Origin: Candidatus Omnitrophota bacterium
GTDB lineage: Bacteria > Omnitrophota > Gorgyraeia > Zapsychrales > JANLHA01
Assembly: GCA_022711395.1 (NCBI GenBank)
Contig: JAKLFA010000001.1
Location: 387,277-451,276 of the forward strand
DNA: 64,000 nucleotides
Reading direction: 5' to 3'
A model generated the notes under the pieces. That model did not search any database and had not been told where the DNA came from. It saw nothing but the letters and a program-made list of their open reading frames with translations. The number at the start of each line of letters is the position of its first letter. Position 1 is the first letter of the stretch. A program made the translations under genes and the position numbers. This document shows positions 9,977 to 35,718 of this stretch, in pieces.

Positions 9977-10098
9977 CTATGATTCAGAGATCTTCAAAAC
10001 TTATTGCAGGGAACGGGCAGAACGTGCTGGAAAGATCTCTTTTAAAATTCAGGAACGTTTTGAACTTTGCGCCATTCAATCCAGGGGAGAGGTTCCGT

Positions 10099-11280
10099 AT
10101 GATCGTTCGACCTAAGGTTAGGGGTTTTATTTGCACAACAGCCCACTCAGCGGGGTGTGCTCAAAATATCAAGGATCAGATCGAATATGTCCGTCGGCAC
10201 GGGCCCATAAATGGGCCGAAACGGGTCTTGGTCATTGGTGCGTCCACAGGATATGGTCTGGCCTCAAGGATCGTTTCGGCTTTTGGCAGCGGAGCATCCA
10301 CAATAGGGGTTTTTTTCGAAAAGCCTGCGGAAGGCGAACGCACGGCCACGGCAGGGTGGTATAACTCCGCGGCGTTCGAAGTGGAGGCCCGCAAGGCAGG
10401 GTTGTATTCAAAGAGTTTCAATGGTGACGCGTTTTCAGATCAAATTAAGGCCCAAGTGGTTCAAGCAATCCGAAAAGATTTGGGGCAGGTTGACATGGTG
10501 ATTTATAGCTTGGCCGCGCCCCGCAGGGTTCACCCTAAAACAGGCGAACGTTTCAAGGGGGTCGTGAAGCCGCTGGGAAAAGCTTTTAAAAATCGAGCGC
10601 TTGACCTTGAAACTTTTGAAATTATTGATGTTACAACAGAACCGGGAACTGAAGAAGAGCGAAAACAAACAGTCGCGGTGATGGGTGGTGAAGATTGGGA
10701 AATGTGGATCGAAACTTTAAAAAAAGAGGGAGTTTTGGCAGACAAATCCCTAACATTGGCATATTCTTATTTAGGACCAGATATTACATTTCCCATTTAT
10801 CGCCAAGGGACATTGGGAGCGGCCAAAGACCATTTAGAAGCTACTGCGCATAAATTGGATGAAACCCTTCGCCCGAAAGGCGGACGGGCTTTTGTGTCTG
10901 TTCAAAAGGCTTTGGTGACCCAGGCGAGCGCGGCGATCCCTTTGATGGCATTGTATATGGTGATTCTGCTTAAGGTCATGCGGCAAAAGGGTGTGGATGA
11001 GCATTGTATCCAGCAGATCCACAGGTTATATCAGGACCGGCTTTTTTCAGGGCGTGAAATTCCCGTCGATGAAAAGGGGCGCATCAGGCTGGATGACCTT
11101 GAGCTGCGGAATGATGTTCAGGCTGAGGTCAAACAGTCCTGGGAAGCGATCACCACTGAAAATTTTAAGGACTATGCGGATATTTCAGCCTATCAAAATG
11201 ATTTTTTAAGGCTTTTTGGTTTTGAGGTGCCCGGCATTGATTACGAAAAAGACGTTGAGGTGGATGTTCCGATCCCGTAA
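10099..11280 (+). CDS. fabV: trans-2-enoyl-CoA/ACP reductase (NADH), FabV/TER family.
   Basis: ATG at 10099 preceded by GGGGAGA. The N-terminus MIVRPKVRGFICTTAHSAGCAQNIKDQIEYV matches the FabV/TER signature. The ORF-track start at 9979 is probably too long. Confidence 0.8.
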   Translation: MIVRPKVRGFICTTAHSAGCAQNIKDQIEYVRRHGPINGPKRVLVIGASTGYGLASRIVSAFGSGASTIGVFFEKPAEGERTATAGWYNSAAFEVEARKAGLYSKSFNGDAFSDQIKAQVVQAIRKDLGQVDMVIYSLAAPRRVHPKTGERFKGVVKPLGKAFKNRALDLETFEIIDVTTEPGTEEERKQTVAVMGGEDWEMWIETLKKEGVLADKSLTLAYSYLGPDITFPIYRQGTLGAAKDHLEATAHKLDETLRPKGGRAFVSVQKALVTQASAAIPLMALYMVILLKVMRQKGVDEHCIQQIHRLYQDRLFSGREIPVDEKGRIRLDDLELRNDVQAEVKQSWEAITTENFKDYADISAYQNDFLRLFGFEVPGIDYEKDVEVDVPIP

Positions 11281-15061: not shown

Positions 15062-15135
15062 GGTTTGCATTTATTATATAGATACGTTATACTTTTATTA
15101 CCATTTCAAGCTAAATTGCTTCATCAAGGGGCGCC

Positions 15136-17712
15136 ATGAATCGCAAAGCACAGCAAATCGTTGAATATCTCCTGTTGATCGCCAGTGTTATGGTGGTTTT
15201 TTTGGCTGTTTCCGGTCCCAATGGAATGATCCGCTGGAGGGTGGAAGATTCGATCAACCGGACCATTAACCTCATCAAAAAAGGGGATCCCCTTCCTTCA
15301 ACGGCCTATTATTGGGTTAAAGTTAACTGCGATTGTACTGGTCAGAGGGATTGTGTGTATCCTGGGGCGGCTGAGGTCTTTGTGAGCTGCACGTATCGGT
15401 GCATTCAGAATGGAACGGGCGCCAAAGTTGATGATTTTTTCTGTATCGATCTTTTGGGCTATAAACCGAACGCTCTTGGAAGTTGCGGGAATGGGCCATG
15501 CTGCGGTAACGCTAGAGTGGACGCGGCTTATGGTGAGCAATGCGACTCGAGCGCGGGATTTACACAGACGTGTAGCACCAGGCATACTCTCACAGACCCG
15601 GCTCGGAACACATGGTCGGGCAGCGTTCAATGCAACCAGTGCCGGATCATTGACACTTGCGTGGAAGTGGAAAACCCCGCGATCGCTCCTGTCTGCGGTG
15701 ATAACCGTCTGCAGTCGGCTGAGCGGTGCGATATGGTTAACGGCCGGCCGGTCTTTAATCCGGCATACGTGACCAATACGTCATGCATCGGCCGGAATAC
15801 GCCTGTCGCGCCGATCGTCGCTTTTACAGGAGGGTCTTTGGGTTGCAGCAACACCTGCCAAGTTGACGTTAGTAAATGTTACAGGTGCCCCACTTCATGG
15901 ACAGATGTTGGCTGCGGTACCAATGACACAGCATCGCTTCCTAATCCTACAGAGGAGGCACATTGTTTTAAAAACGGGACAAAATATCAGGAGCACACCT
16001 GCCGGTGGGGGACGAATCCCAGTAAGACATTCACGGAAGGGCGCTGTACGGCCGGCCCGGATTGCGGGAACCAGTGTAAGAACCGGGATCCATATTCCAC
16101 GATCTGCCCGCTGACGGTCCCATCAAGTTATACGATCGGTGATCATTGGAACTATGTGGATGCGCCGGCGAATTGCGGCATGAACACTATCTGCCAGGCA
16201 TCCTGTGACGGTGAATTGGTGGCGGTTGATGGCGGAACAGATTGTGATTGTGCGGTCGCGAATACGGTGTATAATGCCGGCACCAAAAAATGTGATTGTC
16301 CTTCCGGTTTTATTCATACCACAGACCGGGACGCGGCGTGTGATGTTTATGGCCCATGGAAAAAACCTGAAGTGGATATTTATACGGCATGGTCATCAGC
16401 GCTTTCTACTGCCAGCTGTTCCAGTTCAGCCATCCCAACGGATACATGTGATTCAAATCAGGTGGATGCATACAATTGTCCGGCTGATACAGCAAAGACC
16501 TGCGCGGATTCAACCTGCGTCTCTCTATATCATTCAAGCGTTTCCTATTACACCAGGACTGTGACCTGCGTGAACCCGCCGCCTACAACCACATATTCAA
16601 AGCGGACGTTAGCTTGCACACGGCCACGGGCTAGTTATATGGTAAATTATTTTAGTTGCGTGGATCCAGCGCCAGAGGCAACATACGCATATGATAATGT
16701 GACTTGCGCGGCTGGTGTTAAAAGCTCTACGGGTGCGGGTTCAAATGTTGTTTCGGGAACATGTGCCGCGAACGTGACAGATACATGTGACGGAGTGAAA
16801 ACAGCGGCGTATACATGCGGCGCTACCGAAACAAAAACATGCGTGGATGTTACAAGCTGTAGTGATGGTTTTGGCCCGGACAATGATACGATCACATCCA
16901 CGGAGGGGCCTTTTGATGTGGTAGGCGGCACGTATACATGTGCGAGTGCGCTGACAGATACCTGCAATGGAAATAAAATGGCGGCTTATGCGTGCGTTTC
17001 TGGTTTTAGAGGGACTTGCACGGATGTTGTCTGCACTGACACAGCTTCCGGGGCGGATACGATCACGGTGAATCCGTCCAATCCTATTACGGTTACGGGA
17101 ACATGCGCTGATAACGCTGAGGCGGATACCACGCCTTCCCCGAACAAATCAGCACAGTATACGTGTCAATTATTAGATGAGGGAACGTATACGGATATTT
17201 ATTCTTGTACGACTACTCCCGCTCCTGAAGGGGAGGGAGATACTTATGTTAACGCTACAGCGCCTGTTGTCTTGACTGGAACCTGTGGGACATGTGTTAA
17301 CGAAGGCTGTTTAAGGAGGCATCCGGAAACTGATGTTTGTCTTGAATACGGTAAATGCGTTGATGAGCCAGTAGGCTGCACACAGGGAACGTGCGGTGAA
17401 ACTCCTTTAACGGATACGTGCAATTCCGATAAGGCCGGCGCCTATACATGCGGTTCGGCAGAGGTAAGGACCTGCACGGATGTGGTTTGTGCGGCGGCGG
17501 CGAATGTGAATTACGCGAAGTATTCCACGCGAAGCATCACATGCAAGGCGCTCGGGGCTGATACATGCAACAATGTTCGTTCAGCTGAATATGATTGCCC
17601 CAATACGGTCCGAAAAACGTGCGTGGATGTTTTAAGCAATCCTCCGACCTTTGAAGGGTATCGCGATGTGACCTGCAGGACCTATAACGGAACATCCTGC
17701 GTTGCGCCATAA
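15136..17712 (+). CDS. Large secreted/surface Cys- and Thr-rich repeat protein with an Flp/Tad-pilin-like N-terminal processing motif.
   Basis: N-terminus MNRKAQQIVEYLLLIASVMVVFLAV matches the Flp 'G/XXXXEY + hydrophobic' class III signal, with Ala at -1. About 100 Cys. At least five ~28-aa modules T-D-T-C-[DN]-x-x-[KQR]-x-[AD]-[AE]-Y-x-C-x5-6-T-C-x-D-[VS]. No recognisable catalytic domain. Confidence 0.6.
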   Translation: MNRKAQQIVEYLLLIASVMVVFLAVSGPNGMIRWRVEDSINRTINLIKKGDPLPSTAYYWVKVNCDCTGQRDCVYPGAAEVFVSCTYRCIQNGTGAKVDDFFCIDLLGYKPNALGSCGNGPCCGNARVDAAYGEQCDSSAGFTQTCSTRHTLTDPARNTWSGSVQCNQCRIIDTCVEVENPAIAPVCGDNRLQSAERCDMVNGRPVFNPAYVTNTSCIGRNTPVAPIVAFTGGSLGCSNTCQVDVSKCYRCPTSWTDVGCGTNDTASLPNPTEEAHCFKNGTKYQEHTCRWGTNPSKTFTEGRCTAGPDCGNQCKNRDPYSTICPLTVPSSYTIGDHWNYVDAPANCGMNTICQASCDGELVAVDGGTDCDCAVANTVYNAGTKKCDCPSGFIHTTDRDAACDVYGPWKKPEVDIYTAWSSALSTASCSSSAIPTDTCDSNQVDAYNCPADTAKTCADSTCVSLYHSSVSYYTRTVTCVNPPPTTTYSKRTLACTRPRASYMVNYFSCVDPAPEATYAYDNVTCAAGVKSSTGAGSNVVSGTCAANVTDTCDGVKTAAYTCGATETKTCVDVTSCSDGFGPDNDTITSTEGPFDVVGGTYTCASALTDTCNGNKMAAYACVSGFRGTCTDVVCTDTASGADTITVNPSNPITVTGTCADNAEADTTPSPNKSAQYTCQLLDEGTYTDIYSCTTTPAPEGEGDTYVNATAPVVLTGTCGTCVNEGCLRRHPETDVCLEYGKCVDEPVGCTQGTCGETPLTDTCNSDKAGAYTCGSAEVRTCTDVVCAAAANVNYAKYSTRSITCKALGADTCNNVRSAEYDCPNTVRKTCVDVLSNPPTFEGYRDVTCRTYNGTSCVAP

Positions 17713-17765: not shown

Positions 17766-18029
17766 ATGGATAAAAAGAGATCAAAGACATTTCCGAAGAT
17801 CCAAAAAGATCTTAAATGCTTCCTGGAAAGTGAAGAAGGAAAGATCGTTGAAAAGGACGCCGTGAAGCTCGGCACTGCGATTGTGGCGGCGGGCGTCTTT
17901 TTGGGCAGCTTAGTGGCTCCTGTGGATGATGCCCATAGCGTGACCACGGGCCATTGTCAGCATGCCTCGCACGGAAGCCACGGAAGCCACGGAAGCCACG
18001 GAAGTCATTCGACCGGGGGCTGGTGTTAG
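17766..18029 (+). CDS. HxsA-like precursor peptide with C-terminal His-Xaa-Ser repeats.
   Basis: 87 aa. Charged N-terminal leader, hydrophobic segment LGTAIVAAGVFLGSLVAPV, then CQHASHGSHGSHGSHGSHSTGGWC. Preceded by a GAAGGAGA Shine-Dalgarno (SD) sequence and followed by four radical SAM genes in the same island. Confidence 0.7.
   Translation: MDKKRSKTFPKIQKDLKCFLESEEGKIVEKDAVKLGTAIVAAGVFLGSLVAPVDDAHSVTTGHCQHASHGSHGSHGSHGSHSTGGWC
17966..18005 (+). repeat. Perfect 9-bp tandem repeat (CACGGAAGC)x4 encoding the His-Gly-Ser repeats.
   Basis: Direct reading: cacggaagc cacggaagc cacggaagc cacggaagc cacggaagtcat. Confidence 0.9.
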
Positions 18030-18148
18030 GTTCTGGCGTATGTCCGCCGGGCCTTCAAATGTTTTATCTTCCAGAGCGACATCTTAGTCTAAGAAAAGAA
18101 TCCATGATCAACCCAATCAAGTCTGTAATGAAATATTCTAAAGATCGG

Positions 18149-18188
18149 AATATGACCGTGGTGCAGTCTACGGTCATATTTTAATTTT
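18149..18188 (+). terminator. Intrinsic terminator/attenuator hairpin between the precursor peptide and the downstream rSAM genes.
   Basis: 10-bp perfect stem ATATGACCGT/ACGGTCATAT with a 10-nt loop, followed by TTTTAATTTT. It sits 12 nt upstream of the rSAM start codon. Confidence 0.6.
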
Positions 18189-18199
18189 AAGGAGCGATC

Positions 18200-19627
18200 A
18201 TGCAGGGCCTGGCATCATCTGAGCAAGAGATGAGATTGAGAAGATTGTTCGCGGATCTTTTGATCAAAAAAGGATACGAAAAAGAGGTCTATCTGCTTGA
18301 CCTGAGCGCCTTTTTTAAGAGCCATGGAGTTTACACCTTATCCGAAGTGCAGGACCTTTGGAGAGGGCATTTGTCCAAAGCGGAAGTCTGCCGGCATTAT
18401 TTTTCTCTTTATGTGCACATCCCGTTCTGCCGGAAGCGATGTTCATTTTGCCGGCATTATGAATGGACCTGCAGCAGTGAGAACCAGCTGCGGCTTTATC
18501 TTGATTCGCTGGTCTTTGAGATCCGGGCGTTCAAAGAGATATTTTCTGGTGTTATGTTCAAAAGCCTTTATGTCGGCGGCGGGACGGCGAACATTTTAAG
18601 CCCGGAGCAGATCGATCGTCTTTTGTCAGAGATCGACCTAAATTTTAGATTTGATGATCACGCGGAGAAGACATTTGAATGCAATCCCAATGAGTCCTCC
18701 ATGGAAAAACTATCTGTTTTCGCGGGCCATGGGATCAACCGTGTTTCGTTCGGGGTGCAGAGCTATTCTCAGGATGTTCTGGGATGCACTCATCGCGCTC
18801 ATCAGAGTGAGGAGATGGTCGCCTCAGCCATCAGGGATGCGCAGAGATTCCCGGCTTTTCATAAGATCAATGCGGATCTGTTGATCGGGCTGCATAATGA
18901 CAGCCCGAAAACGGTGTGTGACAGTTTTCTTAAACTTGCGCAACTTGGCACAGGATCGATCTCGCTTTATGCTCTTAAGCCGCCGCTGCATTATATTAAA
19001 AAATATTATCGAGGACGGCAGGACCTCTATGATGAGGCCCTATCGGAAAAATTAAGGGACTTTGAACGCCTGGTCGCGCCGATCACAGAAGAATTTGATT
19101 ATGTTTTTACGCCCCTAAAGGAAATTAGGGCGAACTTTGACGCATGGATGTTCACCCTGCGAAAGAATTATCATACCGGGCGCATCTATAAATATGTGAC
19201 CGCGGAATTCCCGATCGATTGCCTGGGCCTTGGAACAGGCGCGGTCTCGACGATCACGGATCACGCTTTTTACAAGAACCAGAGCTTTACGCCGTCCGCG
19301 CAGGGCGGGACCTTTGAGCAAAACGGCAGATACCGAGGCTGTTTGAAATATGGGCCTAAAGAGCAAAGAGTGTTGTTCATTCTGGGGGAGATCGCCACAT
19401 GGAACCGTATTTCGAAAACCCAATACCGGGGGATGTTCGGATCAGATATTACGGCTGACTTTACGGTTGAACTCGAGCGGCTTTCAGCATTGGGCGTTGT
19501 GAGCCTGACTGACGCGTTCGTTATTTTTGAGAGGAAGAAGCCGGAGGAGAGGTTCTTTTACGCGCTGTTTTTTTTGGACCATAAGATGATCTTTGATGCA
19601 ATGGAAAAACTAAAAACAAAAGTCTGA
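18200..19627 (+). CDS. HemN-like (class C) radical SAM enzyme.
   Basis: YVHIPFCRKRCSFCRHY (HemN-type CxxxCxxC) and LYVGGGT. It immediately follows the Hxs-type precursor peptide. Confidence 0.75.
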   Translation: MQGLASSEQEMRLRRLFADLLIKKGYEKEVYLLDLSAFFKSHGVYTLSEVQDLWRGHLSKAEVCRHYFSLYVHIPFCRKRCSFCRHYEWTCSSENQLRLYLDSLVFEIRAFKEIFSGVMFKSLYVGGGTANILSPEQIDRLLSEIDLNFRFDDHAEKTFECNPNESSMEKLSVFAGHGINRVSFGVQSYSQDVLGCTHRAHQSEEMVASAIRDAQRFPAFHKINADLLIGLHNDSPKTVCDSFLKLAQLGTGSISLYALKPPLHYIKKYYRGRQDLYDEALSEKLRDFERLVAPITEEFDYVFTPLKEIRANFDAWMFTLRKNYHTGRIYKYVTAEFPIDCLGLGTGAVSTITDHAFYKNQSFTPSAQGGTFEQNGRYRGCLKYGPKEQRVLFILGEIATWNRISKTQYRGMFGSDITADFTVELERLSALGVVSLTDAFVIFERKKPEERFFYALFFLDHKMIFDAMEKLKTKV

Positions 19628-19648
19628 TTTCATAAGCGGACGTTCAAG

Positions 19649-21481
19649 ATGCCAGTCGCAAAATCCAAAAATAATTCTGCGGGCGCGGTCCGAAAAAAGG
19701 ACGCCCCCTATGTCATTTCAGCAGCCTATCATTGTAATAACGCGTGCCTGTTCTGTTATAACAAGGGCGGGCAGAATATCCGTCCTCAATTGAGCTTTGA
19801 TGAGATGCTCCGGCAGATCGAACAAGCCGCCGGGGCAGGGTATAAAAAGGTCGCTTTTTTCGGGGGGGAATGCACGGTCGAGCCGTATTTTTTTGATCTG
19901 CTCAAGGTCGCCAAAAAATTCGGTTTAAAGGCCCGGCTGGAAACCAACGGCCAGATGTTCGCAGAGACGGACTTTTTGAGGCGATTGAAAGAATTCGACC
20001 TGGATTCATGCCAGTTTTCTTTTCATACTTATGAGGAATCGGTGCATGATGAGTTGACGCGCAATCCGGGCGGATTCCGCAAGACCGTCAAGGGCATCCT
20101 GAATTTTAAAAAAGCCTTTCCCCATGTCAGGCTGGACAGTTACACCGTGATCACCCGCCGGAACGTGCGTCAATTGTATAAGACGGCCTGTTATCTTCAC
20201 AAATTCTTTGGCGTGCAGGAGGCGTTCTTTTCGTTTTTGATCTCTCCGGCGGAGAGGGAAAATTTTAAGCGCCTCGCCGTTTCGTTCAATGACGCCCGTC
20301 CCTGTTTGCAAAGGGCGCTGGACTATCTTTCTGGCCATAACCTTCCGTTCCGGATCGATAAATGCCCGAAATGCGTATTTCCCCAGTATCACGAGCTTCA
20401 TCATTATGAAAAAGGGGTCTTTGATCCGGATGATTACTGCAAGCATGCGGTCTGTGAAAGCTGTCCGCTTTCTGCGGATTGCCCGGGATTCAGTAAACAA
20501 TACGTGGCTGTTTTCGGATTTGATGGCCTGCGGCTGGGAGGATTTCAGCAGGATGAGCTGAAATATTTTTTTGCCGGGCTGAATATGGGAGCGTTAAAGA
20601 GCGTGAAACGATCGCTGACCTTTGATGAGTTCAACAATCCAGTGCTGAACTTTGAGAGGGAAGAGGGGGGCTGGGAGCAGATCTGCAAAGATGTCAATAT
20701 CCCATTGTGCGCGATTAAAAGCACAGGAAAGCTGATCGACATCTGGAATGATTTTCAATTTACGCCGGAGTTTGTTGAAAAAGCGCTTCGTCAAAACAGA
20801 ACAGTGTCCTGTGAAGATTTATCCAGGGCTGTGTGTCAGCAGTTGAGGAAAGATTTTAAGGCGAAGGTCAGTGAGGAAAATGTCCTTTTGACCGCCGGTT
20901 CCCGTCCGGCGTTGTATGCCGCGTTCCTTGCGCACATAAGGCCGGGCGACCTGGCCGTTCTTAAAGAGGGCATGTGGGACGGCTATCGCTATGGTCTTGA
21001 TCAGACCGGGGGCCGGGTCGTTGAGGTTTCTTCTTACGATGAACTGGAGAATGTCGGTTCGGATGAGCTGCGGCTGGTGATCGTCAACAACCCTCAGCTG
21101 CCTTCCGTGCGCCAGCGGTTGTCTGAAAAGGAAATCAGGAAGCTCATCTCTTTTTGCAATCAGCGGGGAACGTTTTTGCTCGTCGATGAGATCGGTAACC
21201 GCCTTTCTCCTGACCCGTTTTCGGTCCTTTCGCATTGTGATATGTCTAAAGACCGCGTGATCGTGACCCAGTCATTTTCTAAAAATTATTTTATTCCTCA
21301 ATATAAGGCCGGTTATGCGGTGGCGCATCCTGAGATCATTTCAAAGATCAAACGGATCATTGATTTCAGCGGATATCCGATCGCGCCCCGGTCCGTTCAG
21401 GCAGCGCATGCGGTTCTCTGTTCACCTCAGCAGTGGCAGAAAGAAAAGGCCGCCATGATCTATAAAAAAGGGACGTGGTAA
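19649..21481 (+). CDS. Radical SAM domain fused to a C-terminal PLP-dependent class I/II (HisC-like) aminotransferase-fold domain.
   Basis: N-terminal CNNACLFC (CxxxCxxC) with GGE. The C-terminal ~250 aa align to the aminotransferase fold, including SFSKNYFIPQYKAGYAVA. Compare hisC in this window: [18 protein letters not shown], the pyridoxal-Lys motif. Confidence 0.6.
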   Translation: MPVAKSKNNSAGAVRKKDAPYVISAAYHCNNACLFCYNKGGQNIRPQLSFDEMLRQIEQAAGAGYKKVAFFGGECTVEPYFFDLLKVAKKFGLKARLETNGQMFAETDFLRRLKEFDLDSCQFSFHTYEESVHDELTRNPGGFRKTVKGILNFKKAFPHVRLDSYTVITRRNVRQLYKTACYLHKFFGVQEAFFSFLISPAERENFKRLAVSFNDARPCLQRALDYLSGHNLPFRIDKCPKCVFPQYHELHHYEKGVFDPDDYCKHAVCESCPLSADCPGFSKQYVAVFGFDGLRLGGFQQDELKYFFAGLNMGALKSVKRSLTFDEFNNPVLNFEREEGGWEQICKDVNIPLCAIKSTGKLIDIWNDFQFTPEFVEKALRQNRTVSCEDLSRAVCQQLRKDFKAKVSEENVLLTAGSRPALYAAFLAHIRPGDLAVLKEGMWDGYRYGLDQTGGRVVEVSSYDELENVGSDELRLVIVNNPQLPSVRQRLSEKEIRKLISFCNQRGTFLLVDEIGNRLSPDPFSVLSHCDMSKDRVIVTQSFSKNYFIPQYKAGYAVAHPEIISKIKRIIDFSGYPIAPRSVQAAHAVLCSPQQWQKEKAAMIYKKGTW

Positions 21482-21498
21482 AGAGGGCTTTTATGTCT

Positions 21499-23097
21499 TT
21501 AAGGCAGGATCTTGTAGAATGTGTAACGGGCCTTGCCTTGATCGTATGAACGGTATTCTTCCATCCTGTAACTGCTTTTCATGATCCCGCACAATTCCCC
21601 TTCAGCGGCCGACATTTGGCAGATCAGATCATCGAAAAAGAGAACGCAGTCCGTTGAACGCAAGATGTTTCCTCGCTCCGCATGGTTTTCCAGGAAAAAG
21701 CTGAGATCGACCACGTTGAGTTCAGTGGTGGACCGCAGGATCGTTGGGTGGTTGGCAATGATCAGGCAGCCGGAAGGGATGTCTTTTTCCGCCAGCTCCG
21801 GGACGCGGGTCTCCAGCCGGTGTCCGTCACCGCCGAACATCTTTGACACCGGGTCAACGTAAGGGAGGCAGGAGCTTATTAAAAGGCCCACGATGAGAAT
21901 GCGCATGGCCGTTTGCGCGGAAGGCCGTTTGATTTTTTGCGTAAAAAAGACCAAGCCCTCAGAGAGCGCCGATGCGGCAAAAATGCCCAGGACAGGGTAA
22001 AAACTGAGAACGATCCGCCCCTTTCCCAGCAGGGCGTCTTCGCCGCCCAGGGTCTTTATCCAAGAGGAGAAATAGGCGGCCCACCAAAAGACGAGCCACA
22101 GGCACAGGAATGAAAATATTTTTCGGTCCTTGATGAGGAGCAGGATAGCCCCGATAAGCGAAAGAAAAGAGAAAAGAAGCGGCTGCATGGATCCGTTAAA
22201 AATGGAGATGCCGTAATGCCGTGTGTTGTAAAACAAATTTTGGAGGCTCCAGTTGGCTCCGCGGATGCCGGTATATTCTGCGACCTCGCTGAAGTTCAGG
22301 GAGGAATAATAATGAAGGACTTGCGCGAGATTGGGCAGGCTTAAGGCAATAAACAGCAGCCAGGCGAAGACGTATGATACAGGAGGCGTTACGTTGTTTT
22401 TTTCTCCCAGGATCCAGTTTCCCGCCGGGAACAAAAGAAAAAGGATATAATTTTCCGGCCTGAATTGTGCCGCAAGGCATATCGCAGACAGGGAGAGCCA
22501 AAAAAAGGCGCGGGTCTTTTTTTGAAAATAAAGAGAACATGCCGTTACGGCCAGGCAGACCATGAAGAGTGAAACGACATTGGTTTCGGCTGTGGCCGAC
22601 CAGCGGATATGGATCGGCTGAAGGCCTATCAGCAGAGCGGCAAAGATGGCTGTTGTTTTTTTATTCGTGATGGCAAAGGTCAGAAAAAACACTGCAGCGG
22701 CTGAAAGAGCCCCGATAACGATCATCCCGTAAAGCGCGACCCAGTTGTTGGTTCCGAACACGAAAAAAAATGAGCTTAAGAGAAAAGGCCAGCCGATCGA
22801 TTTGGGATAATCCCCCGAGTGGCCTGTTTGCAGGATGTGTTTGGCTGCCTCCATATACCATGGTTCATCCAAATACATCACATGCTGGATCGGCGGGACC
22901 AAAAGGCGCAAGGCGAGAGAAAAGAGAACAATGACGGCAAGCCATCCATAAGCAGCGCCGCCGGCCTTTGACGCGAACTCCGAGAGATTTTTACGGTTCT
23001 GAGCGAGCAGAAATAAAAAGATGATCCATGAGAACAGGGCGCATGCCGGGATGGCGGCGGAAAGAGTTTCGGCTATGGAGCGTAAGAACATTGTCAT
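21499..23097 (-). CDS. Polytopic membrane protein, GT-C-fold glycosyltransferase-like (ArnT/PMT family-like).
   Basis: At least 12 TM helices and a first-loop acidic motif …HVMYLDEPWYMEAAKHI… resembling the GT-C DE/DD motif. Function is inferred from architecture. Confidence 0.45.
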   Translation of the reverse strand: MTMFLRSIAETLSAAIPACALFSWIIFLFLLAQNRKNLSEFASKAGGAAYGWLAVIVLFSLALRLLVPPIQHVMYLDEPWYMEAAKHILQTGHSGDYPKSIGWPFLLSSFFFVFGTNNWVALYGMIVIGALSAAAVFFLTFAITNKKTTAIFAALLIGLQPIHIRWSATAETNVVSLFMVCLAVTACSLYFQKKTRAFFWLSLSAICLAAQFRPENYILFLLFPAGNWILGEKNNVTPPVSYVFAWLLFIALSLPNLAQVLHYYSSLNFSEVAEYTGIRGANWSLQNLFYNTRHYGISIFNGSMQPLLFSFLSLIGAILLLIKDRKIFSFLCLWLVFWWAAYFSSWIKTLGGEDALLGKGRIVLSFYPVLGIFAASALSEGLVFFTQKIKRPSAQTAMRILIVGLLISSCLPYVDPVSKMFGGDGHRLETRVPELAEKDIPSGCLIIANHPTILRSTTELNVVDLSFFLENHAERGNILRSTDCVLFFDDLICQMSAAEGELCGIMKSSYRMEEYRSYDQGKARYTFYKILP

Positions 23098-23121
23098 TTG
23101 AAGATCCTTCGTCCTATTATT

Positions 23122-24060
23122 TTAACGGAAGTAGATCCCTAATGAATCGCCTTCCCAGGTCAGGTAAGAAACGGCTCCGCCGCATTGCTTTAAATATTGC
23201 TTAGAGCTGTCCCACCACGTCAAAAGATGCTCGTCTTTAAAATTAAAGACTGGAAGTTCAGGGGCTGGCAGCGCCGTTTCCAAACGGGCCCAGATCTTGG
23301 TTGAAGAGACCGAGGCCTCCGGTGTGATGCGGTGCAGATATCCGATGTGGCGCAAAGGCATTTGTTTGACCCAGAGTAAAAATGGGGTGAGGAACGCAGA
23401 TCCGTCCCTTGAGCATTGATGGATGATCTCGTCATAGAACGCATCATGAAACGGGGCGGATGAATACGGGTAGATCTTTAAAGAACAATTGCCGCTCGGT
23501 CCGAAGTCTATTCCGATGGCGTCCAGCGTTATTCCTGAAATAAGCGTCTTTAACGCGGCCCGATTGATCCGCAGATCTTCAGCGATCGAAAGGAGAGAGT
23601 CGTCCGCTTTATGACAGGTGTTGATCAGGCTGATGTATGTTTTTAGCAAAAGGCGGCCGTCCTTATTAAGAGTGAAGCCAAACTGCATCGGCCAGTTGGT
23701 TTTTGAAATGGATTTGAAGGCTCCTTCAAGGATATGGACCTGTTGTTGCGTTAATGTTGGTTCCTGCTTTGAAAGAATATGCAGGGCGCGGTAGATCTCA
23801 AAAAAACGCTCTTTGCAGAGGGCCTGTTGGAATTCAAAAGGTCGGTCCGCGTCAAAGAAGCGCAAGTGGAGGAGCCGAAGGTCATCCGTTTTTGAGCTCA
23901 GCGAGAATTCAAAGATGCCCGATTGGGAAGAAAGCGCAGTGCCGGGTTTTTCCAGCAGCTTAAACAGGGAGCTGAAATCCAGCGGCGGGATGTTCCAGTG
24001 TTTTGTCAGGTCTGTGATGAAACGTTTTGCTTGGGAGCTGTCCATGGCTGATAAGGTCAA
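23122..24060 (-). CDS. Hypothetical protein (312 aa) in the rSAM island.
   Basis: Long ORF with coding-like composition, translationally coupled to the upstream rSAM (4-nt overlap). I recognise no family. Confidence 0.45.
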   Translation of the reverse strand: MTLSAMDSSQAKRFITDLTKHWNIPPLDFSSLFKLLEKPGTALSSQSGIFEFSLSSKTDDLRLLHLRFFDADRPFEFQQALCKERFFEIYRALHILSKQEPTLTQQQVHILEGAFKSISKTNWPMQFGFTLNKDGRLLLKTYISLINTCHKADDSLLSIAEDLRINRAALKTLISGITLDAIGIDFGPSGNCSLKIYPYSSAPFHDAFYDEIIHQCSRDGSAFLTPFLLWVKQMPLRHIGYLHRITPEASVSSTKIWARLETALPAPELPVFNFKDEHLLTWWDSSKQYLKQCGGAVSYLTWEGDSLGIYFR

Positions 24061-25208
24061 TATTGATAAAGTTGGATGAACCGCGGATCATATTTTAACG
24101 CGGACTTGATCTTTAAGAAAGTTCGGACATAGATTTTGGAGATACAGCAGAAAGCCGTGTAAAGACGCCGGCTTTGGACGGCGCGTTCGGTCTCGAATGT
24201 CTTTGTGTAGAGGAGATGTCCGATCGGGCAGAAACAATATTTATAGATGGAGCACTCTGAGCACTCGAGCCCGGATTCGGCGGTGAATTCATCGCGCAAT
24301 TTTTTCAGTAAACGCAGGCGTTTATCGTCATCGATCCCTTCGCAGGCGTTTCCGATGGCGTAGTCTTTTCGCATGGCGGGGTCAAGAGAGAAGACTTTGT
24401 CGCAGACATAGAATTGCTGATCGTTCCCGAAAGAGAGCTTTCCGCAGCGTTCCATTTTATCGACCTCGATCCCGTTGACGAGCGTGTCAAGAAATGCGTT
24501 CTTAAAGACCGGGGCGTTACGTTGAAACAGCTCGATATAATAGCGTTCAAAATCTTCAAAGGATCTTTCCATGGACCGCAGGTCGTTCGTGTTCCAGTGG
24601 GCGTATTGGTCAGGATAGAATTCGATCGAATAAAAATCCTTGGCGCTTAAAAAGCGGATATTGTCCAGAAGACGGCTCACGTTTTGTGGGGTGAACACCA
24701 TCGCGGCGGAAAGTCTGAAGGTGGTGCCGAGGCGCTCCATGTTCCGCATGATCGCATCAAAGCTGGACCGGTCAGGGTTGTTGCGGAATGGGCGGTTCTC
24801 ATCATGGGTCAGTTTGTCGCCATCGATGCTGATCTTGATGATGGTGTCTTCTTTGGCGATCGAGCGGAGGATGTCCTTATCCAGGAGGGTGCCGTTGCTG
24901 ATGATCGCCACATCTAAGCGGGTCTTGTTTTCCTGGGCTTTTTTTCGGGCGTAGTCGCAGAGCGCTCTTAAAAGTCCGATCTCAAGGGTCGGCTCGCTGC
25001 CGTTAAAACTTAAGGTCTTGTGTTTTCCGGGATAGCTGAAGAGCAGGTCGATCGATCGTTTCAAGGATTCTTCATCATCCGGAGAATGCTTGAAATCCGT
25101 CTTTTTTAGGAAGCAGTATTTACAGTCGAGGTTGCATTGGCCGGTGAAAAAGAAATTCAGCGTGGACGGCGAGTCGTGGGGGATTATGGGGTTATTCGGA
25201 TCTCTCAT
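24057..25208 (-). CDS. Radical SAM/SPASM-domain protein (anaerobic sulfatase-maturase-like); HxsB/HxsC candidate.
   Basis: Start revised to ATG 25208 (MRDPNNPII…). The ORF-track N-terminal 74 aa are low-complexity and would overlap the upstream gene by 238 nt. CNLDCKYC lies near the N-terminus. The C-terminus has Cys clusters (CEGIDDDKRL…CSECSIYKYCFCPIGH…). Confidence 0.7.
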   Translation of the reverse strand: MRDPNNPIIPHDSPSTLNFFFTGQCNLDCKYCFLKKTDFKHSPDDEESLKRSIDLLFSYPGKHKTLSFNGSEPTLEIGLLRALCDYARKKAQENKTRLDVAIISNGTLLDKDILRSIAKEDTIIKISIDGDKLTHDENRPFRNNPDRSSFDAIMRNMERLGTTFRLSAAMVFTPQNVSRLLDNIRFLSAKDFYSIEFYPDQYAHWNTNDLRSMERSFEDFERYYIELFQRNAPVFKNAFLDTLVNGIEVDKMERCGKLSFGNDQQFYVCDKVFSLDPAMRKDYAIGNACEGIDDDKRLRLLKKLRDEFTAESGLECSECSIYKYCFCPIGHLLYTKTFETERAVQSRRLYTAFCCISKIYVRTFLKIKSALKYDPRFIQLYQY

Positions 25209-26691: not shown

Positions 26692-26896
26692 GGGCGATCT
26701 CGAGATAGAGGACATAGTTTTTGAACTCACTGATAAAGATTTCTGCGTCGTCCAATTGTCCGTCGTCATCAACGGAGACATGGAAATACTGCCCCTTTGA
26801 GCGGATCTCAAACTTGCCGAAATCCTTGAATTGTTCAAAGGCGGCTTCAATGTGCGCTTGTGAGTATAAATTTTTATGAAAAGGGATTGTCAGCAT
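26678..26896 (-). CDS. Small hypothetical protein (72 aa) immediately upstream of the SPASM rSAM pair; possible accessory protein or second substrate.
   Basis: Tight spacing: 2 nt after the upstream gene and a 14-nt overlap with the downstream rSAM. I have no family assignment. Confidence 0.4.
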   Translation of the reverse strand: MLTIPFHKNLYSQAHIEAAFEQFKDFGKFEIRSKGQYFHVSVDDDGQLDDAEIFISEFKNYVLYLEIAHAQP

Positions 26897-26897
26897 T

Positions 26898-27401
26898 TTA
26901 CTGCAAAGGTCTTTTTATGTTCAACGGATCTTCTTCGTAGGTTCCCGCAGAAAAATCTTCCTGCTCCAGTTCTTTCTTGAGAGCTTCGATCTCCTGTTCG
27001 ATCTTTTTGATGTCATCCTCATCACTGTTGGCGCGTGAAGGTTCTTGCGGCCCTTTGGATGAGGAGGGAAGGGCGGCGTTAATGGCCCCTCCAACGATAT
27101 ATTCAATGATCGTTTTATTTTTTTGGGCGATCTCTTTGCGGACGGATGCATTGAGAAGTTCATTCAAGAATTCATTGCGGAGCGCTTCGAGCTGCTTTTT
27201 GGTTGATCGTGTCTTTGTTTTCAACAAGACGGTGAACTCATCTTTTTTCGGGGCGTCGATATAAACATAGACTTTGTCTACGATGATGTAGCAAGCCTTT
27301 AAAAGGACCTCTTTGGGATAGATTTTAGGATGAACGGAGAAGACAATCTCTGAATCCTTCGTGTTAATCCGTGTTTTGCTGGATTTTTCGAAATTATTCA
27401 T
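26898..27401 (-). CDS. Hypothetical protein (167 aa) with an acidic coiled-coil C-terminus; HxsD-like candidate.
   Basis: First gene of the minus-strand rSAM operon. Contains …FLNELLNASVRKE…, loosely reminiscent of the LLNDYxLRE motif I recall for HxsD. This similarity is weak. Confidence 0.4.
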   Translation of the reverse strand: MNNFEKSSKTRINTKDSEIVFSVHPKIYPKEVLLKACYIIVDKVYVYIDAPKKDEFTVLLKTKTRSTKKQLEALRNEFLNELLNASVRKEIAQKNKTIIEYIVGGAINAALPSSSKGPQEPSRANSDEDDIKKIEQEIEALKKELEQEDFSAGTYEEDPLNIKRPLQ

Positions 27402-32611: not shown

Positions 32612-33547
32612 ATGGCGAGCCTAGGCTATATACAAGTCACCCGCGAGTGCAATCAGAATTGTATGATCTGTTCTAATCCTCCGACGGGTTATTATTTGCC
32701 GCTTGACCAGGCCAAGAAGGAAGCGGACTGGCTGGTCGAAAAGCGGTGCGCAGGTGTTATTTTAAGCGGCGGGGAGCCTACGTTGTATCCGCAACTTCCG
32801 GAATTGATCCGATATTGCAAAGCCCGGGGGCTGTTTCCACGGATCATCACCAACGGGCAGAAGACCTGTGATGAACAGTATCTTCGCCTTTTAAAAGAAT
32901 CCGGTCTGCAGCATTTGCATCTGTCGATCTATTCTTGCCGGCCCGCGGTTCAGGCGAAGCTCACCGGCAACGCGCAGGCCTTTGCCAACATTGAAAAAAG
33001 CCTTATGAATATCGTGCGGCTTGGCGGAATGACCGTGGATGTCAATATCGTGATCAATAAATATAATGCCGGTCATTTGTTGGAGACGGTTTCGTGGATG
33101 ATTGAACATTATGGTTTTGTTCAACATTGTGTTTTCAACAATCTGGATCCGTGCATGAACCGCGTGGCGGAGCATCCGGATGTGGTCCCGCGGCTCAATG
33201 ATTTTGAGCTGGAGCTTCACCGGGCGTTGCAGTTCTTGGCTGCTCATGGAAAAACATTCCGTGTTGAGCGTGTCCCGCTGTGCTATTTGACGGATTTCGA
33301 GCACATTTCCACGGAAACGCGCAAGATCGTCCTGAATGAACAGAGAGCGATCTATTTTTTGGATGACCGGGGAGAGGTGGAGCAGGAAGATTGGTATTAT
33401 AAAAAAGGGGCTGCTTGTAGGCCCTGCAGGCTGAATAAGATCTGCGCCGGGCTGTATGCCCTGGGAAAAGGATATGATGAAGGGGAGTTGTATCCGGTTT
33501 TTATTGATCCTGCCGGGATCATTGAGAAGATCAAAGGAATTCCATGA
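32612..33547 (+). CDS. Radical SAM protein, third tandem paralog.
   Basis: CNQNCMIC; LSGGEPTL; C-terminal CRPCRLNKICAG. Confidence 0.75.
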   Translation: MASLGYIQVTRECNQNCMICSNPPTGYYLPLDQAKKEADWLVEKRCAGVILSGGEPTLYPQLPELIRYCKARGLFPRIITNGQKTCDEQYLRLLKESGLQHLHLSIYSCRPAVQAKLTGNAQAFANIEKSLMNIVRLGGMTVDVNIVINKYNAGHLLETVSWMIEHYGFVQHCVFNNLDPCMNRVAEHPDVVPRLNDFELELHRALQFLAAHGKTFRVERVPLCYLTDFEHISTETRKIVLNEQRAIYFLDDRGEVEQEDWYYKKGAACRPCRLNKICAGLYALGKGYDEGELYPVFIDPAGIIEKIKGIP

Positions 33548-34521
33548 TATTCAATAACCTTTTGCTTGCTATGCTTTTTGGGTTCAGTTTGTATATTGCA
33601 GATCAGGATATGCGGACAAAACGCATCTCGAACCGGGTGATCGCAAGGGCGCTTTTGGCGGGGGTGTTGGTGTATGGAGCGGGCCTTATAGCTGGCGCGA
33701 TGAGCGTGACGTATGTTCTTCAAGCAGGGCTGAACACGCTTACGGCTTTTGCCGCTGGATTCCTGATCTGGAAACTGAACTTATGGCCTGCCGGGGACGC
33801 GAAATTTTTCATGGCCTGTTCCTTTTTGATCCCTTTACAGTATTATTCAAAGCAGTTTTTCTATTTTCCGGCGTTTAGTTTTTTGATGAACATGTTCTTG
33901 ATCTATTTGGTTTTTATGGGGTATAAATTTGCGATCTGGGCAGGTCAAAACATCGTTGCATTTTTCAAAAGCCGGGTGTTTTTAAGAAAGGGTTTTTTGC
34001 GATTTCTGAAGATGAGATGCAAACGATCCCTGGCCGTTCTCGGAACTGCGGGATTTTGGAAGAAACTGGCTTACCGGGTCATGTTCAAGGCTGTTTTTCA
34101 GGTGTCGCTGATCGCCGTGGCGTTCGTGTTTTTTACAAAGCGGAGTTTTCAGTTCCAGGCGTTCTCAGTGTTTTTTTTGTTCTTTCTGGGAGTGCGGATG
34201 GTATTCAGTGCTTTTGTTAAGACCTCAGGACGCCGGATGATCAAGGCGGAAACCCTTCAACCCGGCATGAATCTCTCGATAGATACGATCAAGCGGGTGA
34301 AATGCGATCGTGAATTCTTCAAGGGGATCGGGGCCTTGAGGGCTGATGGGCTTACTGTTCAGCAGGCAGAGGCCCTTAAAGAATATTTGTTGCGGAAAAA
34401 TTTTCTTGATATCTATATTTATGACACGATCGCGTTCTCACCATTCATCGCCTTGGGGGCTGCGGCAACGGTCCTGGCGAACGGCTCTGTGCTGGATTTG
34501 GGCCCGCAGATCATGATGTAA
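33544..34521 (+). CDS. A24-family prepilin peptidase-like membrane aspartyl protease (TadV/CpaA type) with a C-terminal extension.
   Basis: DQDMRTKRISNRV (CpaA-like D…R.I[PS]N motif) and WPAGDAKFF (GxGD second catalytic Asp), both embedded in TM helices. It overlaps the last rSAM stop (ATGA). Confidence 0.55.
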   Translation: MIFNNLLLAMLFGFSLYIADQDMRTKRISNRVIARALLAGVLVYGAGLIAGAMSVTYVLQAGLNTLTAFAAGFLIWKLNLWPAGDAKFFMACSFLIPLQYYSKQFFYFPAFSFLMNMFLIYLVFMGYKFAIWAGQNIVAFFKSRVFLRKGFLRFLKMRCKRSLAVLGTAGFWKKLAYRVMFKAVFQVSLIAVAFVFFTKRSFQFQAFSVFFLFFLGVRMVFSAFVKTSGRRMIKAETLQPGMNLSIDTIKRVKCDREFFKGIGALRADGLTVQQAEALKEYLLRKNFLDIYIYDTIAFSPFIALGAAATVLANGSVLDLGPQIMM

Positions 34522-34536: not shown

Positions 34537-35718
34537 TCAATGAAAAGGTTTTTGGGGGTCAATGCTTGCGGCTGAACATGTCTTGTTTTTGCCGGAGGAT
34601 TTAGCCTGATACATGGCTTGGTCAGCCAGGCGGATCAGGGCGTCCTTGGAAGAGACATCCGTTGGGTAGGATGCCAGTCCGATACAGACCGTGAATCGCA
34701 TGTATCCGACCCCGGAGGGGGAGGGGAAGTTATGTTCAGCGATTTTTGTGCGCAGGTGTTCAGCAATCTCAAAGGAATTCTGTCCATTGCTGTTTTTCAG
34801 GATCATGGCGAATTCTTCACCGCCGTAACGGCAAACATAGTCTCCGGGTCGCAGGGACTCGGTCAGGAGACGTGAAATATCTTTGAGGATCTGGTCCCCG
34901 TGCTGATGGCCGCACGTGTCATTGAGCTTTTTGAAATCATCGATATCGATCATCGCCAACGTAAAAGGTTCGCCGCTTCTTTTGCTCGCTTCGATCTCAT
35001 TGACCAGGTTCTTTTGAAAATAACCGTGGTTCCAGAGGCCAGTCAAAGAGTCGGTCTGGCTTTGGGCGACGACCATCTCATAAAGGCGTGAGTTCTCGAT
35101 CGCGAGCCCTGCCTGATTGGCCAGCATGCGGAAAAAACGGATATCGGCATCCGAGATGGGTTTCTTTGTGAAAATGTTATCAGCGACGATGAGCCCGTTG
35201 ATCTGGTCCTGCGCTTTGAGCGGCATGATCAGGAGCTCATGGCTTTGGAACTTTTTTAAAAACGGGTCATCTTTGAATTTTTCCACCTCTTCCGGAGGTA
35301 AATGCCAGGCGTGCCCTCTGTGATAAGCCTGGCACAACAGGCAGTCGGGCATATCCTTAACGGAGAACGTCATGTCTTTTAAGGAAAGGTAAAGATTGGA
35401 TTCATGATAGGTCTGCTCGAGGCGTTCTTCATGGATCAGGTCTTCCATTCGCTGCTCGGATTGGTCAATGTATTTCCAGATCTTGTTGGCCTCTTCTCCG
35501 GATTCCGGGCCGATGGCCATTTCGCATTTGAGGGTTTGGTTCTTTGGGTTGAAGAGGAAAAGGATAGCGCGGTTATACTCAAGCCCAAAATGCGAAGTGA
35601 CGCCTGTCAGAATAATATAGAGAACATGCTTCAGTTCGAGCGTTGTGCGCATCGCGCAGCTGATCTCATAAAGGATCCGTAAATTGCGTTCTGTTGGGTC
35701 TGTTTGTGAAGGCACCAT
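34537..35718 (-). CDS. GGDEF diguanylate cyclase with an N-terminal GAF-like sensor region.
   Basis: …RYGGEEFAMIL… active-site motif within a GGDEF domain (…SLTGLWNHGYF…DIDDFKKLND…). Confidence 0.85.
   Translation of the reverse strand: MVPSQTDPTERNLRILYEISCAMRTTLELKHVLYIILTGVTSHFGLEYNRAILFLFNPKNQTLKCEMAIGPESGEEANKIWKYIDQSEQRMEDLIHEERLEQTYHESNLYLSLKDMTFSVKDMPDCLLCQAYHRGHAWHLPPEEVEKFKDDPFLKKFQSHELLIMPLKAQDQINGLIVADNIFTKKPISDADIRFFRMLANQAGLAIENSRLYEMVVAQSQTDSLTGLWNHGYFQKNLVNEIEASKRSGEPFTLAMIDIDDFKKLNDTCGHQHGDQILKDISRLLTESLRPGDYVCRYGGEEFAMILKNSNGQNSFEIAEHLRTKIAEHNFPSPSGVGYMRFTVCIGLASYPTDVSSKDALIRLADQAMYQAKSSGKNKTCSAASIDPQKPFH

Follow-up and report, generated by a model that had tools for sequence, protein, structure and literature searches.

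The question raised by this locus is how to read a large Cys-rich protein that begins like a pilin and is encoded next to a cluster of radical S-adenosylmethionine (rSAM) genes: as a surface protein held by a pilin-type anchor, or as a substrate of the neighbouring enzymes. The window, by which we mean the whole analysed stretch of 64,000 nucleotides from contig JAKLFA010000001.1 of a Candidatus Omnitrophota metagenome-assembled genome (MAG), contains an ATG-started open reading frame (ORF) at 15136-17712 on the forward strand, the existence of which we confirmed. Its 858-residue product has been deposited in NCBI as HSA31899.1 and is annotated as a hypothetical protein. The Omnitrophota have not been cultured; most are ultra-small, and they are believed to live as predators of other cells or attached to them. 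They commonly encode Tad and T4a pili and have been inferred to be host-dependent (PMC10066038), and many small genes with class III signals lie beside their type II secretion system (T2SS)- or Tad-like systems (bioRxiv 10.1101/2023.11.21.568195).

A preliminary description of the gene had called it giant, which overstates 858 residues, and had credited it with about 100 Cys, where we counted 75 (8.7%). It had proposed either a disulfide-rich surface protein on a pilin-type N-terminus or a very large rSAM substrate, and had held that both would be new. The first of these alternatives fits our results best, given the A|QQIVEY register, the conservation of the segment that carries it, and the 35 invariant residues among the 36 Cys of the core. 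The claim of novelty went too far, since modular pilins with large grafted adhesive modules have been described and are widespread (PMC8179133). We favour a modular type-IV-pilin-like adhesin with a signal of the Flp/archaeal class III type and a new disulfide-rich ectodomain, a reading to which we give roughly even chances of being right.

The N-terminus is the best-conserved segment of the family

The protein begins with MNRKAQQIVEYLLLIASVMVVFLAVSGPNG. Its five-residue leader, MNRKA, is fixed rather than a choice of annotation, because an in-frame stop lies 11 codons upstream of the ATG and no alternative start falls between the two. The start-site context thus bears out the short leader with Ala at position -1 that had been described before. 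Cleavage by a prepilin peptidase at A5|Q6 would leave Gln at +1, Glu at +5 and Tyr at +6, within 21 mostly hydrophobic residues (QQIVEYLLLIASVMVVFLAVS) that run up to a Gly-Pro pair.

Residues 1-50 are the best-conserved segment of the family. In an alignment of the window protein with three homologues (P0001, P0002 and P0003; 40-47% identical overall), 31 of the first 50 columns are invariant, compared with 61 of the 312 non-Cys columns (20%) in residues 55-402. When the 29%-identical P0007 is added, M1, N2, A5, Q6, Q7, E10, Y11, F22-L23-A24, G27, P28 and G30 are still invariant, and the N-terminus is retained even in this protein and in a 515-residue paralogue. Across 6 homologues M1, N2, A5, Q6 and Q7 do not vary; in one paralogue Q7 is His. 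G27, P28, G30 and R33 are invariant among the homologues as well. In a six-frame translation of the window we found the class-III-like N-terminal pattern a single time; elsewhere, in the loci of relatives, it is found only in family members.

A class III signal peptide has been defined by a hydrophilic leader of 6-26 residues ending in Gly, with archaeal exceptions, followed by 21 hydrophobic residues broken by Glu5 (PMC4471445). The stretch QQIVEYLLLIASVMVVFLAVS, followed by GP, has the expected length of about 21 hydrophobic residues and the Glu5 after the cleavage site; the leader, with five residues and a terminal Ala, departs from the first part of the definition. Leaders of the MNRKA type fit the archaeal range and exceptions (PMC3875500, PMC4471445). 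Indeed, the DUF361 pilins of Methanococcus maripaludis have leaders of 5-13 residues, Gln at +1 and Glu at +5, so a five-residue leader, which had been called unusually short, and Gln at +1 are normal among them (PMC3875500). Judged by sequence, the signal appears to be a mix of Flp and archaeal DUF361 features, with Ala replacing Gly at -1.

Profile and structure comparisons touched the same segment. We aligned the N-terminus by hhalign with the Caulobacter Flp pilin, whose sequence had been checked against PDB 8u1k beforehand; IVEYLLLIASVMV paired with AIEYGLIVALIAV of the mature pilin in the expected register, weakly (P 0.014, probability 3%). Class_IIIsignal (PF04021) was the only Pfam family that touched a family N-terminus, namely that of P0002, where residues 4-24 aligned to profile positions 2-22 of 27 with 10.3 bits against a cut-off of 23.7 (E 0.73); Pfam scans of the whole window protein and of its N-terminus reported no match to this family. 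The AlphaFold2 (AF2) model of residues 1-125 (pLDDT 63.6) contains a helix at 3-26, a kink at GPNG, a second helix at 31-49 (pLDDT about 55-60) and a long beta hairpin with strands at 58-72 and 79-91.

A number of results weigh against a pilin-type signal. The Flp_Fap family (PF04964) was unmatched by the full protein, by its N-terminal 30 or 53 residues and by any homologue at E up to 1-10, and no significant match was found to pilin hidden Markov models (HMMs) in Pfam (Flp_Fap, N_methyl, Class_IIIsignal), in NCBIfam or among PDB pilins. Of the Flp prepilin signature to which the N-terminus had been assigned, the hydrophobic tract and an invariant Glu at +5 and Tyr at +6 are present, but the Flp label fails on the PF04964 profile and on Gly at -1. 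The residue at -1 is an invariant Ala, and Gly is critical there in the studied bacterial systems (PMC4471445); the leader is one residue short of the bacterial range of 6-26. Furthermore, A-V-S|G at residues 24-27, kept as A-[VI]-[SA]|G, also obeys the -3/-1 rule of signal peptidase I. No pilus or secretion-machinery genes lie near the gene at either locus of the family (the 64-kb window and 10 kb around the paralogues), and the single A24 peptidase encountered is encoded in the variable rSAM block described below. The structure models were poor, with an unusable full-length model (pLDDT 32) and a pLDDT of 64 for residues 1-125, and no pilin fold was demonstrable; a Foldseek search of the latter model against the PDB returned no pilin and nothing with E <0.3. 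The presumed disulfides and surface location of the ectodomain are further weak points, and the window has no gene of the Dsb type.

Several of these points serve equally the main rival explanation, by which the same ectodomain would have no pilus: the N-terminus would serve either as an ordinary Sec signal peptide, which signal peptidase I would cut behind A-V-S26, or as a signal anchor that is not cleaved, and the product would be a secreted, periplasmic or membrane-tethered Cys-rich binding protein. The -3/-1 pattern in all homologues, the unmatched pilin HMMs, the Ala at the would-be -1 position and the lack of filament machinery nearby at either locus all agree with it. It would, however, require an h-region of 19-21 residues with an invariant Glu and an invariant AQQ..EY, in a register that equals that of Flp/DUF361 pilins exactly, and one would not normally expect a generic signal peptide to be better conserved than the rest of a fast-evolving protein, as this segment is by the column counts above. 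We favour the pilin-type role because a generic signal peptide is expected neither to be the best-conserved segment of a fast-diverging protein nor to retain these invariant residues, and we regard export by a plain signal peptide or anchor as possible, if doubtful.

The ectodomain combines a Cys-rich core with a mobile module

In addition to its Cys, the protein contains 12.9% Thr (16% in residues 403-858), 11 N-x-S/T sites and only 0.8% His (7 His). Several C-x-C, CC and C-x2-C pairs are present. The N-terminal segment is followed by a core common to all family members, and 35 of its 36 Cys are invariant among the window protein, P0001, P0002 and P0003 (residues 55-402). The spacing of these Cys is irregular and domain-like, with conserved Gly, Pro, Trp and Tyr, and the core had no match in Pfam, NCBIfam or the PDB.

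Two parts of the core recall known extracellular repeats. The layout of residues 58-123, W...C.C...C...V.D..C...KP...C..C, is reminiscent of thrombospondin repeats of the ADAMTS type. The top Foldseek match of the model of residues 1-125 was the thrombospondin type 1 repeat (TSR) didomain of THSD7A (8oxr), which was not significant (E 0.34), and Pfam TSP1_ADAMTS gave a full-length but insignificant alignment (E 5.1) with P0007 only. We rejected a thrombospondin type 1 repeat (PF00090/PF19030) as unproven, the hhalign comparison with verified TSP-1 repeats being negative (probability 1%). The core also contains two motifs of the CGNG..D..GE.CD type. The regular expression CGN[GA]..D..GE.CD occurs in 1-3 copies in all members that have the region, with three clean copies in P0007, as opposed to about none in shuffled sequences. 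The motifs resemble disintegrin/DUF4215 repeats, to which no profile match was obtained: DUF4215, TIGR02232 and disintegrin families were matched in neither Pfam nor NCBIfam, with P0007 and excised segments included, at E up to 10. Both resemblances are leads only, which lie at the level of motifs and may be convergent.

The C-terminal half carries the repeats that the preliminary description had reported as at least five units of about 28 residues with a TDTC...AYxC...TCxD pattern. An HMM built from the five modules recovered them at residues 434, 547, 606, 758 and 808, together with a degenerate copy, so that the number holds; the conserved unit is about 50 residues rather than 28 and reads xDTC-x8-Y-x-C-x7-C-x-D-V-x-C ... 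Y-x-T-R-x-V-T-C. Among 18 copies of the module, Cys6, Cys16, Cys24 and Asp26 never vary. The repeats are 62-86% identical in DNA over short stretches, which argues for old duplications kept at the protein level and not for recent repeats or an assembly artefact. The TDTC module was also seen in two short proteins with unrelated N-termini, P0008 (L006 10001-10822) and P0006 (L007 560-1192). One of the two comes from an Elusimicrobiota MAG (MFA6316639.1), P0008 being an Elusimicrobiota protein; the module is thus mobile across architectures and phyla.

At the level reached by the tools used, the core and the TDTC unit look like two modules undescribed in databases. Pfam and NCBIfam scans of the whole protein, the N-terminus, the excised segments and all homologues gave nothing significant, and PDB-sequence profile searches with the full family, the N-terminus, residues 55-125 and a double module gave no meaningful match. 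A known disulfide-rich domain family, to which the module might have belonged according to the preliminary description, was thus matched in none of the Pfam, NCBIfam and PDB profile searches. We discounted a match to Ig-like repeats of a phage tail protein, because its summed E of 4e-4 comes from a Y.W...Y.C pattern matched three times with about 10 bits each; a phage tblastn search gave no match.

The conserved Cys would most likely form disulfides. They could instead serve as metal ligands or redox-active thiols; the protein would then bind metal or handle electrons in the periplasm or at the surface of an anaerobe. The organism appears anaerobic from its many rSAM enzymes and its Fer4-ETF, the window lacks a Dsb-type gene, and the close Cys pairs would suit such a role. 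Motifs or family matches of the ferredoxin, cytochrome or metallothionein type were not found, however, His is scarce, and the irregular Cys spacing among conserved Gly, Pro, Trp and Tyr is that of extracellular disulfide-rich modules. We consider this reading quite unlikely.

The ectodomain changes faster than the surrounding genome

Relatives of the protein are few. Three relatives came from a word-indexed search of 5.8 billion clusters, and 8 matches from an exhaustive phmmer search over 1.84 billion representatives; two metagenome scans for the N-terminal patterns yielded no relatives, and homologue searches with the N-terminal 53 residues and with the module alignment returned nothing. 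The closest genome match is also from Omnitrophota.

The C-terminal part of the family is variable. The number of TDTC modules differs among the window protein, P0001, P0002/P0009 and P0005; P0007 has none, and in P0003 and the 515-residue paralogue an unrelated C-terminal domain (...SPEGMxCASGENRP...ILVACYC...) replaces them. The window MAG (locus tags P5160_) encodes two further paralogues in tandem, the 515-residue protein (MNRKAQHVIEY...) followed by the 643-residue P0009 (L008-L010, 8412-11932), so that three paralogues with the same N-terminus and core and with different C-termini occur in one MAG. A locus of the same type as this tandem pair is present in another MAG (L002, 3-2964). In L005 (2830-5914) the orthologue has been called as two genes of 519 and 511 residues, split by a run of N that appears as XXXX in the translation; the true orthologue has about 1030 residues and more modules than the window copy.

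Between genomes the ectodomain is 29-51% identical, as opposed to 68-95% for the flanking genes. The Cys-rich protein of L001 shares 40% identity with that of the window (SMC 86%, ACAD 95%, HxsA 83%), that of L005 51% (SMC 88%, HemN-like rSAM 71%) and that of L004 29% (SMC 68%, ACAD 91%). A fast-changing ectodomain with fixed Cys and a fixed N-terminal helix, gain and loss of modules, and paralogues together make the profile of an exposed binding protein.

The adjacent rSAM block is an independent insertion

The gene order of the window is TPR, GlgC-like, ETF, ACAD, FabV, ACP, SMC, the Cys-rich gene, a block at 17.7-34.5 kb, GGDEF on the reverse strand, CvpA, DnaG and RpoD. The block (17766-34521, 16.8 kb) is a His-Xaa-Ser system unusually rich in rSAM genes, of which it has seven. 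It encodes an HxsA3-like peptide, a HemN-like rSAM, an HxsC-like rSAM-aminotransferase fusion, a GT-C/PMT_2 protein, a PapB-like SPASM rSAM, HxsB and HxsD, and furthermore several unknown genes, three more HxsC-like rSAMs and a Peptidase_A24 gene. HxsB scored 494 bits, while the four HxsC-like paralogues were all sub-threshold, including the one fused to a class I/II aminotransferase (19649-21481).

This setting is the ground for the second alternative of the preliminary description, a very large substrate of the neighbouring rSAM/SPASM enzymes with Cys-Asp thioethers in the TDTC...TCxD modules, in the manner of ranthipeptides or of QhpC. The invariant Cys and Asp of the module would fit such cross-links. 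The HxsA-like peptide and rSAM genes follow the gene in three contigs, as L001 and L005 carry the block, or at least its beginning, in the same way as the window. The Cys-rich gene does lie directly upstream of the His-Xaa-Ser peptide gene, as had been stated, with a gap of 53 nt and no predicted terminator in it, and the PapB-like SPASM enzyme is encoded 6 kb away.

The linkage is broken elsewhere. In L004, a 167-kb contig of another Omnitrophota MAG with the same backbone, the gene for P0007 has smc on one side and the GGDEF gene on the other as immediate neighbours, and the entire block is missing. We conclude that the Cys-rich gene is part of the conserved backbone, and that the Hxs/rSAM block, which has its own precursor, was inserted independently. 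At the second locus of the window MAG, in the order DnaK, DnaJ, ..., ABC, GGDEF, GGDEF, the 515-residue paralogue, the 643-residue paralogue, ROK and LptD, neither rSAM nor pilus genes occur within 10 kb of the two paralogues, one of which has TDTC modules. The module-bearing Elusimicrobiota protein P0008 has no SPASM neighbour either. Moreover, the Hxs system has its own HxsA-type precursor, HxsB and HxsD, and the 858-residue protein matches no HxsA model. The conserved membrane-insertion signal should take the protein out of the cytoplasm, where rSAM maturases act, and most of the conserved Cys lie in the core, which has no motif of this kind. The spacing of ranthipeptides is Cys-X3-Asp. That of the module is C-x-D, which speaks against the proposed likeness of the TC-x-D spacing to the ranthipeptide Cys-x(n)-Asp motif.

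With the linkage broken in L004 and at the paralogue locus, we consider a very large rSAM substrate highly improbable. Because the module Cys and Asp are invariant and the adjacency without a terminator recurs in three contigs, we leave a slim chance that, in block-carrying genomes, SPASM rSAMs cross-link the TDTC...TCxD modules by non-reducible Cys-Asp thioethers before export; by the synteny of L004 and of the paralogue locus, this would be no general property of the family. If true, such pre-export cross-linking would yield a protein-sized pilus adhesin modified in the manner of ribosomally synthesized and post-translationally modified peptides (RiPPs). Annotators should be warned against assigning the Cys-rich gene to the adjacent His-Xaa-Ser radical-SAM system.

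Candidate processing enzyme and other neighbours

The Peptidase_A24 gene of the block is the one exception to the lack of pilus, Tad or T2SS machinery genes in the window. The motifs D-M-R-T-K-R-I-S-N and A-G-D-A-K can be read from its sequence, and no FlaK-type match was found in the PDB. Its product is a candidate processing enzyme only and may serve the Hxs/rSAM system instead. The gene is absent beside the L004 homologue. In the window (30577-34521) three HxsC-like rSAM genes stand in tandem, and the A24 gene overlaps the stop of the third one, so that the four genes look like one operon. In the HxsA-like peptide a Gly is followed by a hydrophobic tract (KLG|TAIVAAGVFLGSLV; ...AVKLG|TAIVAAGVFLGSLVAP), and the peptidase might cut this peptide after KLG instead. 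An A24 peptidase acting as the leader peptidase of an Hxs peptide would be unusual, if true.

GGDEF genes adjoin the family at both loci: a GAF-GGDEF gene is the conserved downstream neighbour, and two GGDEF genes (L008 6063-8377) directly precede the paralogue pair. Control of the Cys-rich family by cyclic diguanylate (c-di-GMP) may be considered from this association only. The block also encodes a polytopic GT-C/PMT_2-type glycosyltransferase, by which glycosylation of the Thr-rich protein is conceivable; the gene is absent beside the homologues in L004 and L008.

Two other proteins of the block have no family match: a 315-residue protein with a signal-peptide-like N-terminus and many Cys (29382-30329, reverse strand) and a 254-residue membrane protein with a CCHEASCDVDYC motif (27539-28303, reverse strand). 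Farther downstream, an 875-residue protein (53808-56435) has a GH2-type TIM barrel together with a dockerin and an IPT/TIG domain, domain types that have been reported around the giant-gene loci of Omnitrophota. Upstream, the FabV-type enoyl reductase is a single ORF of 433 residues in the window (9979-11280), is divided into 324 and 100 residues in L001 (4516-5807) and is missing between ACAD and ACP in L004.

The features of the locus are collected in the table. The sigma-70-like site carries little weight, since the scan that produced it found 8 sites where 4.3 were expected.

Table. Features of the Cys-rich gene and selected neighbours, in window positions
Feature	Position	Strand	Evidence or remark
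Weak sigma-70-like site, upstream of the ORF	15064-15093		scan
Shine-Dalgarno-like AAGGGG	15126..15131	+	4 nt before ATG; read from sequence
CDS, 858 aa, pilin-like Cys-rich surface protein (HSA31899.1)	15136..17712	+	
MNRKA, aa 1-5, short basic leader with a final Ala; A5|Q6 as putative prepilin-peptidase site	15136..15150	+	homologue alignment
aa 6-26, QQIVEYLLLIASVMVVFLAVS, 21-residue hydrophobic tract, Glu +5, Tyr +6, alpha1-N-like	15151..15213	+	alignment, hhalign, AF2
aa 27-55, GPNG kink, amphipathic helix 31-49 (MIRWRVEDSINRTINLIKK), linker	15214..15300	+	AF2, alignment
Conserved Cys-rich core, aa 56-402, 36 Cys	15301..16341	+	alignment
aa 58-123, long beta-hairpin sub-domain, weak TSR-type-1 resemblance, unconfirmed	15307..15504	+	AF2, Foldseek
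First CGNG..D..GE.CD-type motif, aa 123-137, CGNARVDAAYGEQCD	15502..15546	+	regex
Second CGNG..D..GE.CD-type motif, aa 187-199, CGDNRLQSAERCD	15694..15732	+	regex
TDTC module 1, aa 434-484	16435..16587	+	module HMM i-E 7e-24
TDTC module 2, aa 547-598	16774..16929	+	module HMM i-E 3e-18
TDTC module 3, aa 606-658	16951..17109	+	module HMM i-E 9e-22
Degenerate module, aa 669-719	17140..17292	+	module HMM i-E 4e-5; same degenerate copy in P0001, P0005
TDTC module 4, aa 758-809	17407..17562	+	module HMM i-E 4e-25
TDTC module 5, aa 808-853, C-terminal	17557..17694	+	i-E 1e-22; kept at end of P0001, P0002, P0005, P0009
HxsA3-like His-Xaa-Ser peptide	17766-18029		53 nt downstream; NCBIfam HxsA3 1.3e-13, sub-threshold
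GT-C/PMT_2-type glycosyltransferase, polytopic, 532 aa, in rSAM block	21499-23097	-	
Peptidase_A24, 325 aa, without methyltransferase domain	33544..34521	+	Pfam PF01478 6.3e-8, above cut-off
GAF-GGDEF diguanylate cyclase, conserved downstream neighbour of the family	34537..35718	-	directly adjacent in L004 (11163-12428)

A working model for the Cys-rich protein

The pilin-like adhesin that we favour would work as follows. The leader MNRKA and the tract QQIVEYLLLIASVMVVFLAVS would act as a class III signal peptide of the Flp/archaeal type and insert the protein into the inner membrane with its N-terminus inside and its C-terminus outside. Cleavage by an A24 prepilin peptidase between Ala5 and Gln6 would then release the leader. 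Through the conserved helix and its Glu at +5, the protein would become part of a type IV filament of a Tad- or T2SS-like kind, the tip being the most plausible place; failing that, the same helix would hold the protein at the cell surface. Display on the filament, or anchoring through it, would depend on a type IV filament system encoded elsewhere in the genome.

The ectodomain of about 800 residues, probably stabilised by disulfides, would consist of the core of about 350 residues common to all paralogues and a variable C-terminal array of TDTC modules of about 50 residues. As it evolves much faster than the surrounding genome, we take it to be the ligand- or cell-binding part, that is, the adhesin of presumably host-associated ultra-small bacteria. 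As a possible molecule for the recognition of host or prey, the family is a concrete candidate: it diversifies rapidly, has multiple paralogues, is Cys-stabilised, has a highly conserved pilin-type anchor and is encoded next to c-di-GMP synthases.

Comparison with known systems

The resemblances of single parts can be dealt with briefly. Residues 58-123 share their layout with thrombospondin type 1 repeats and produced the insignificant Foldseek and TSP1_ADAMTS alignments, whereas hhalign was negative and no match was significant. The CGN[GA]..D..GE.CD motifs at residues 123 and 187 are like those of disintegrin/DUF4215-TIGR02232 repeats but came with no significant family match. With the thioether substrates of rSAM/SPASM enzymes, such as PapA/freyrasin and QhpC of quinohemoprotein amine dehydrogenase, the protein has in common close, conserved Cys and Asp in repeats and, in some genomes, SPASM enzymes nearby. 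Those substrates, however, are small cytoplasmic precursors strictly linked to their maturase, whereas the present protein has another spacing, 858 residues, an export signal and a linkage that is broken in L004 and at the paralogue locus.

The sugar-binding proteins of the Sulfolobus bindosome are large extracellular proteins in which a class III signal serves surface display and not the building of a pilus, possibly with the help of type IV filament machinery (PMC4471445). In this they are like the favoured reading of the Cys-rich protein; they differ in being archaeal, in their unrelated binding domains and in not being Cys-rich.

The Flp/Tad type IVb pilins (PF04964; Caulobacter PilA, PDB 8u1k) share the X|xxxxEY register, Glu at +5, Tyr at +6, the hydrophobic helix and the Gly kink. 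They differ from the Cys-rich protein in having Gly rather than Ala at -1, leaders of typically 10-26 residues rather than 5, and a length of about 40-80 residues rather than 858, and the latter lacks a PF04964 match. Moreover, neither the 64-kb window nor the 10 kb around the paralogues contains genes of a tad locus (TadV/CpaA, TadA, TadB/C, RcpA).

The archaeal EppA-dependent DUF361/PF04021 pilins of Methanococcus maripaludis share the short leader, Gln at +1 and Glu at +5. They also have an EYLLLI-type helix start that is similar to the N-terminus of the family. On the other hand, the PF04021 match was sub-threshold (10.3 against 23.7 bits), the leader ends in Ala and not in Gly, the host is a bacterium and the ectodomain is far larger; the pilins of M. 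maripaludis, furthermore, lack Tyr at +6 (PMC3875500).

An architectural parallel is found among modular type IV pilins, such as PilB and PilC of Streptococcus sanguinis, CofB of enterotoxigenic Escherichia coli (ETEC) and GspK, which combine a pilin-type N-terminus with bulky non-pilin modules, have a proposed tip location and an adhesive role, and include an 860-residue example with 12 repeats that is near the present protein in size (PMC8179133). These pilins were recognised by the T4a-type IPR012902 motif (G|FTLxE). The present protein lacks that motif, and its modules are new, Cys-rich and without a database signature; incorporation into a filament would have to be assumed, and no pilin globular module was seen. 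The Cys-rich protein can be counted among modular pilins only by taking its Flp/DUF361-like signal to be that of a pilin. If that is true, the concept would extend from T4a-type pilins to class III signals of the Flp/archaeal type.

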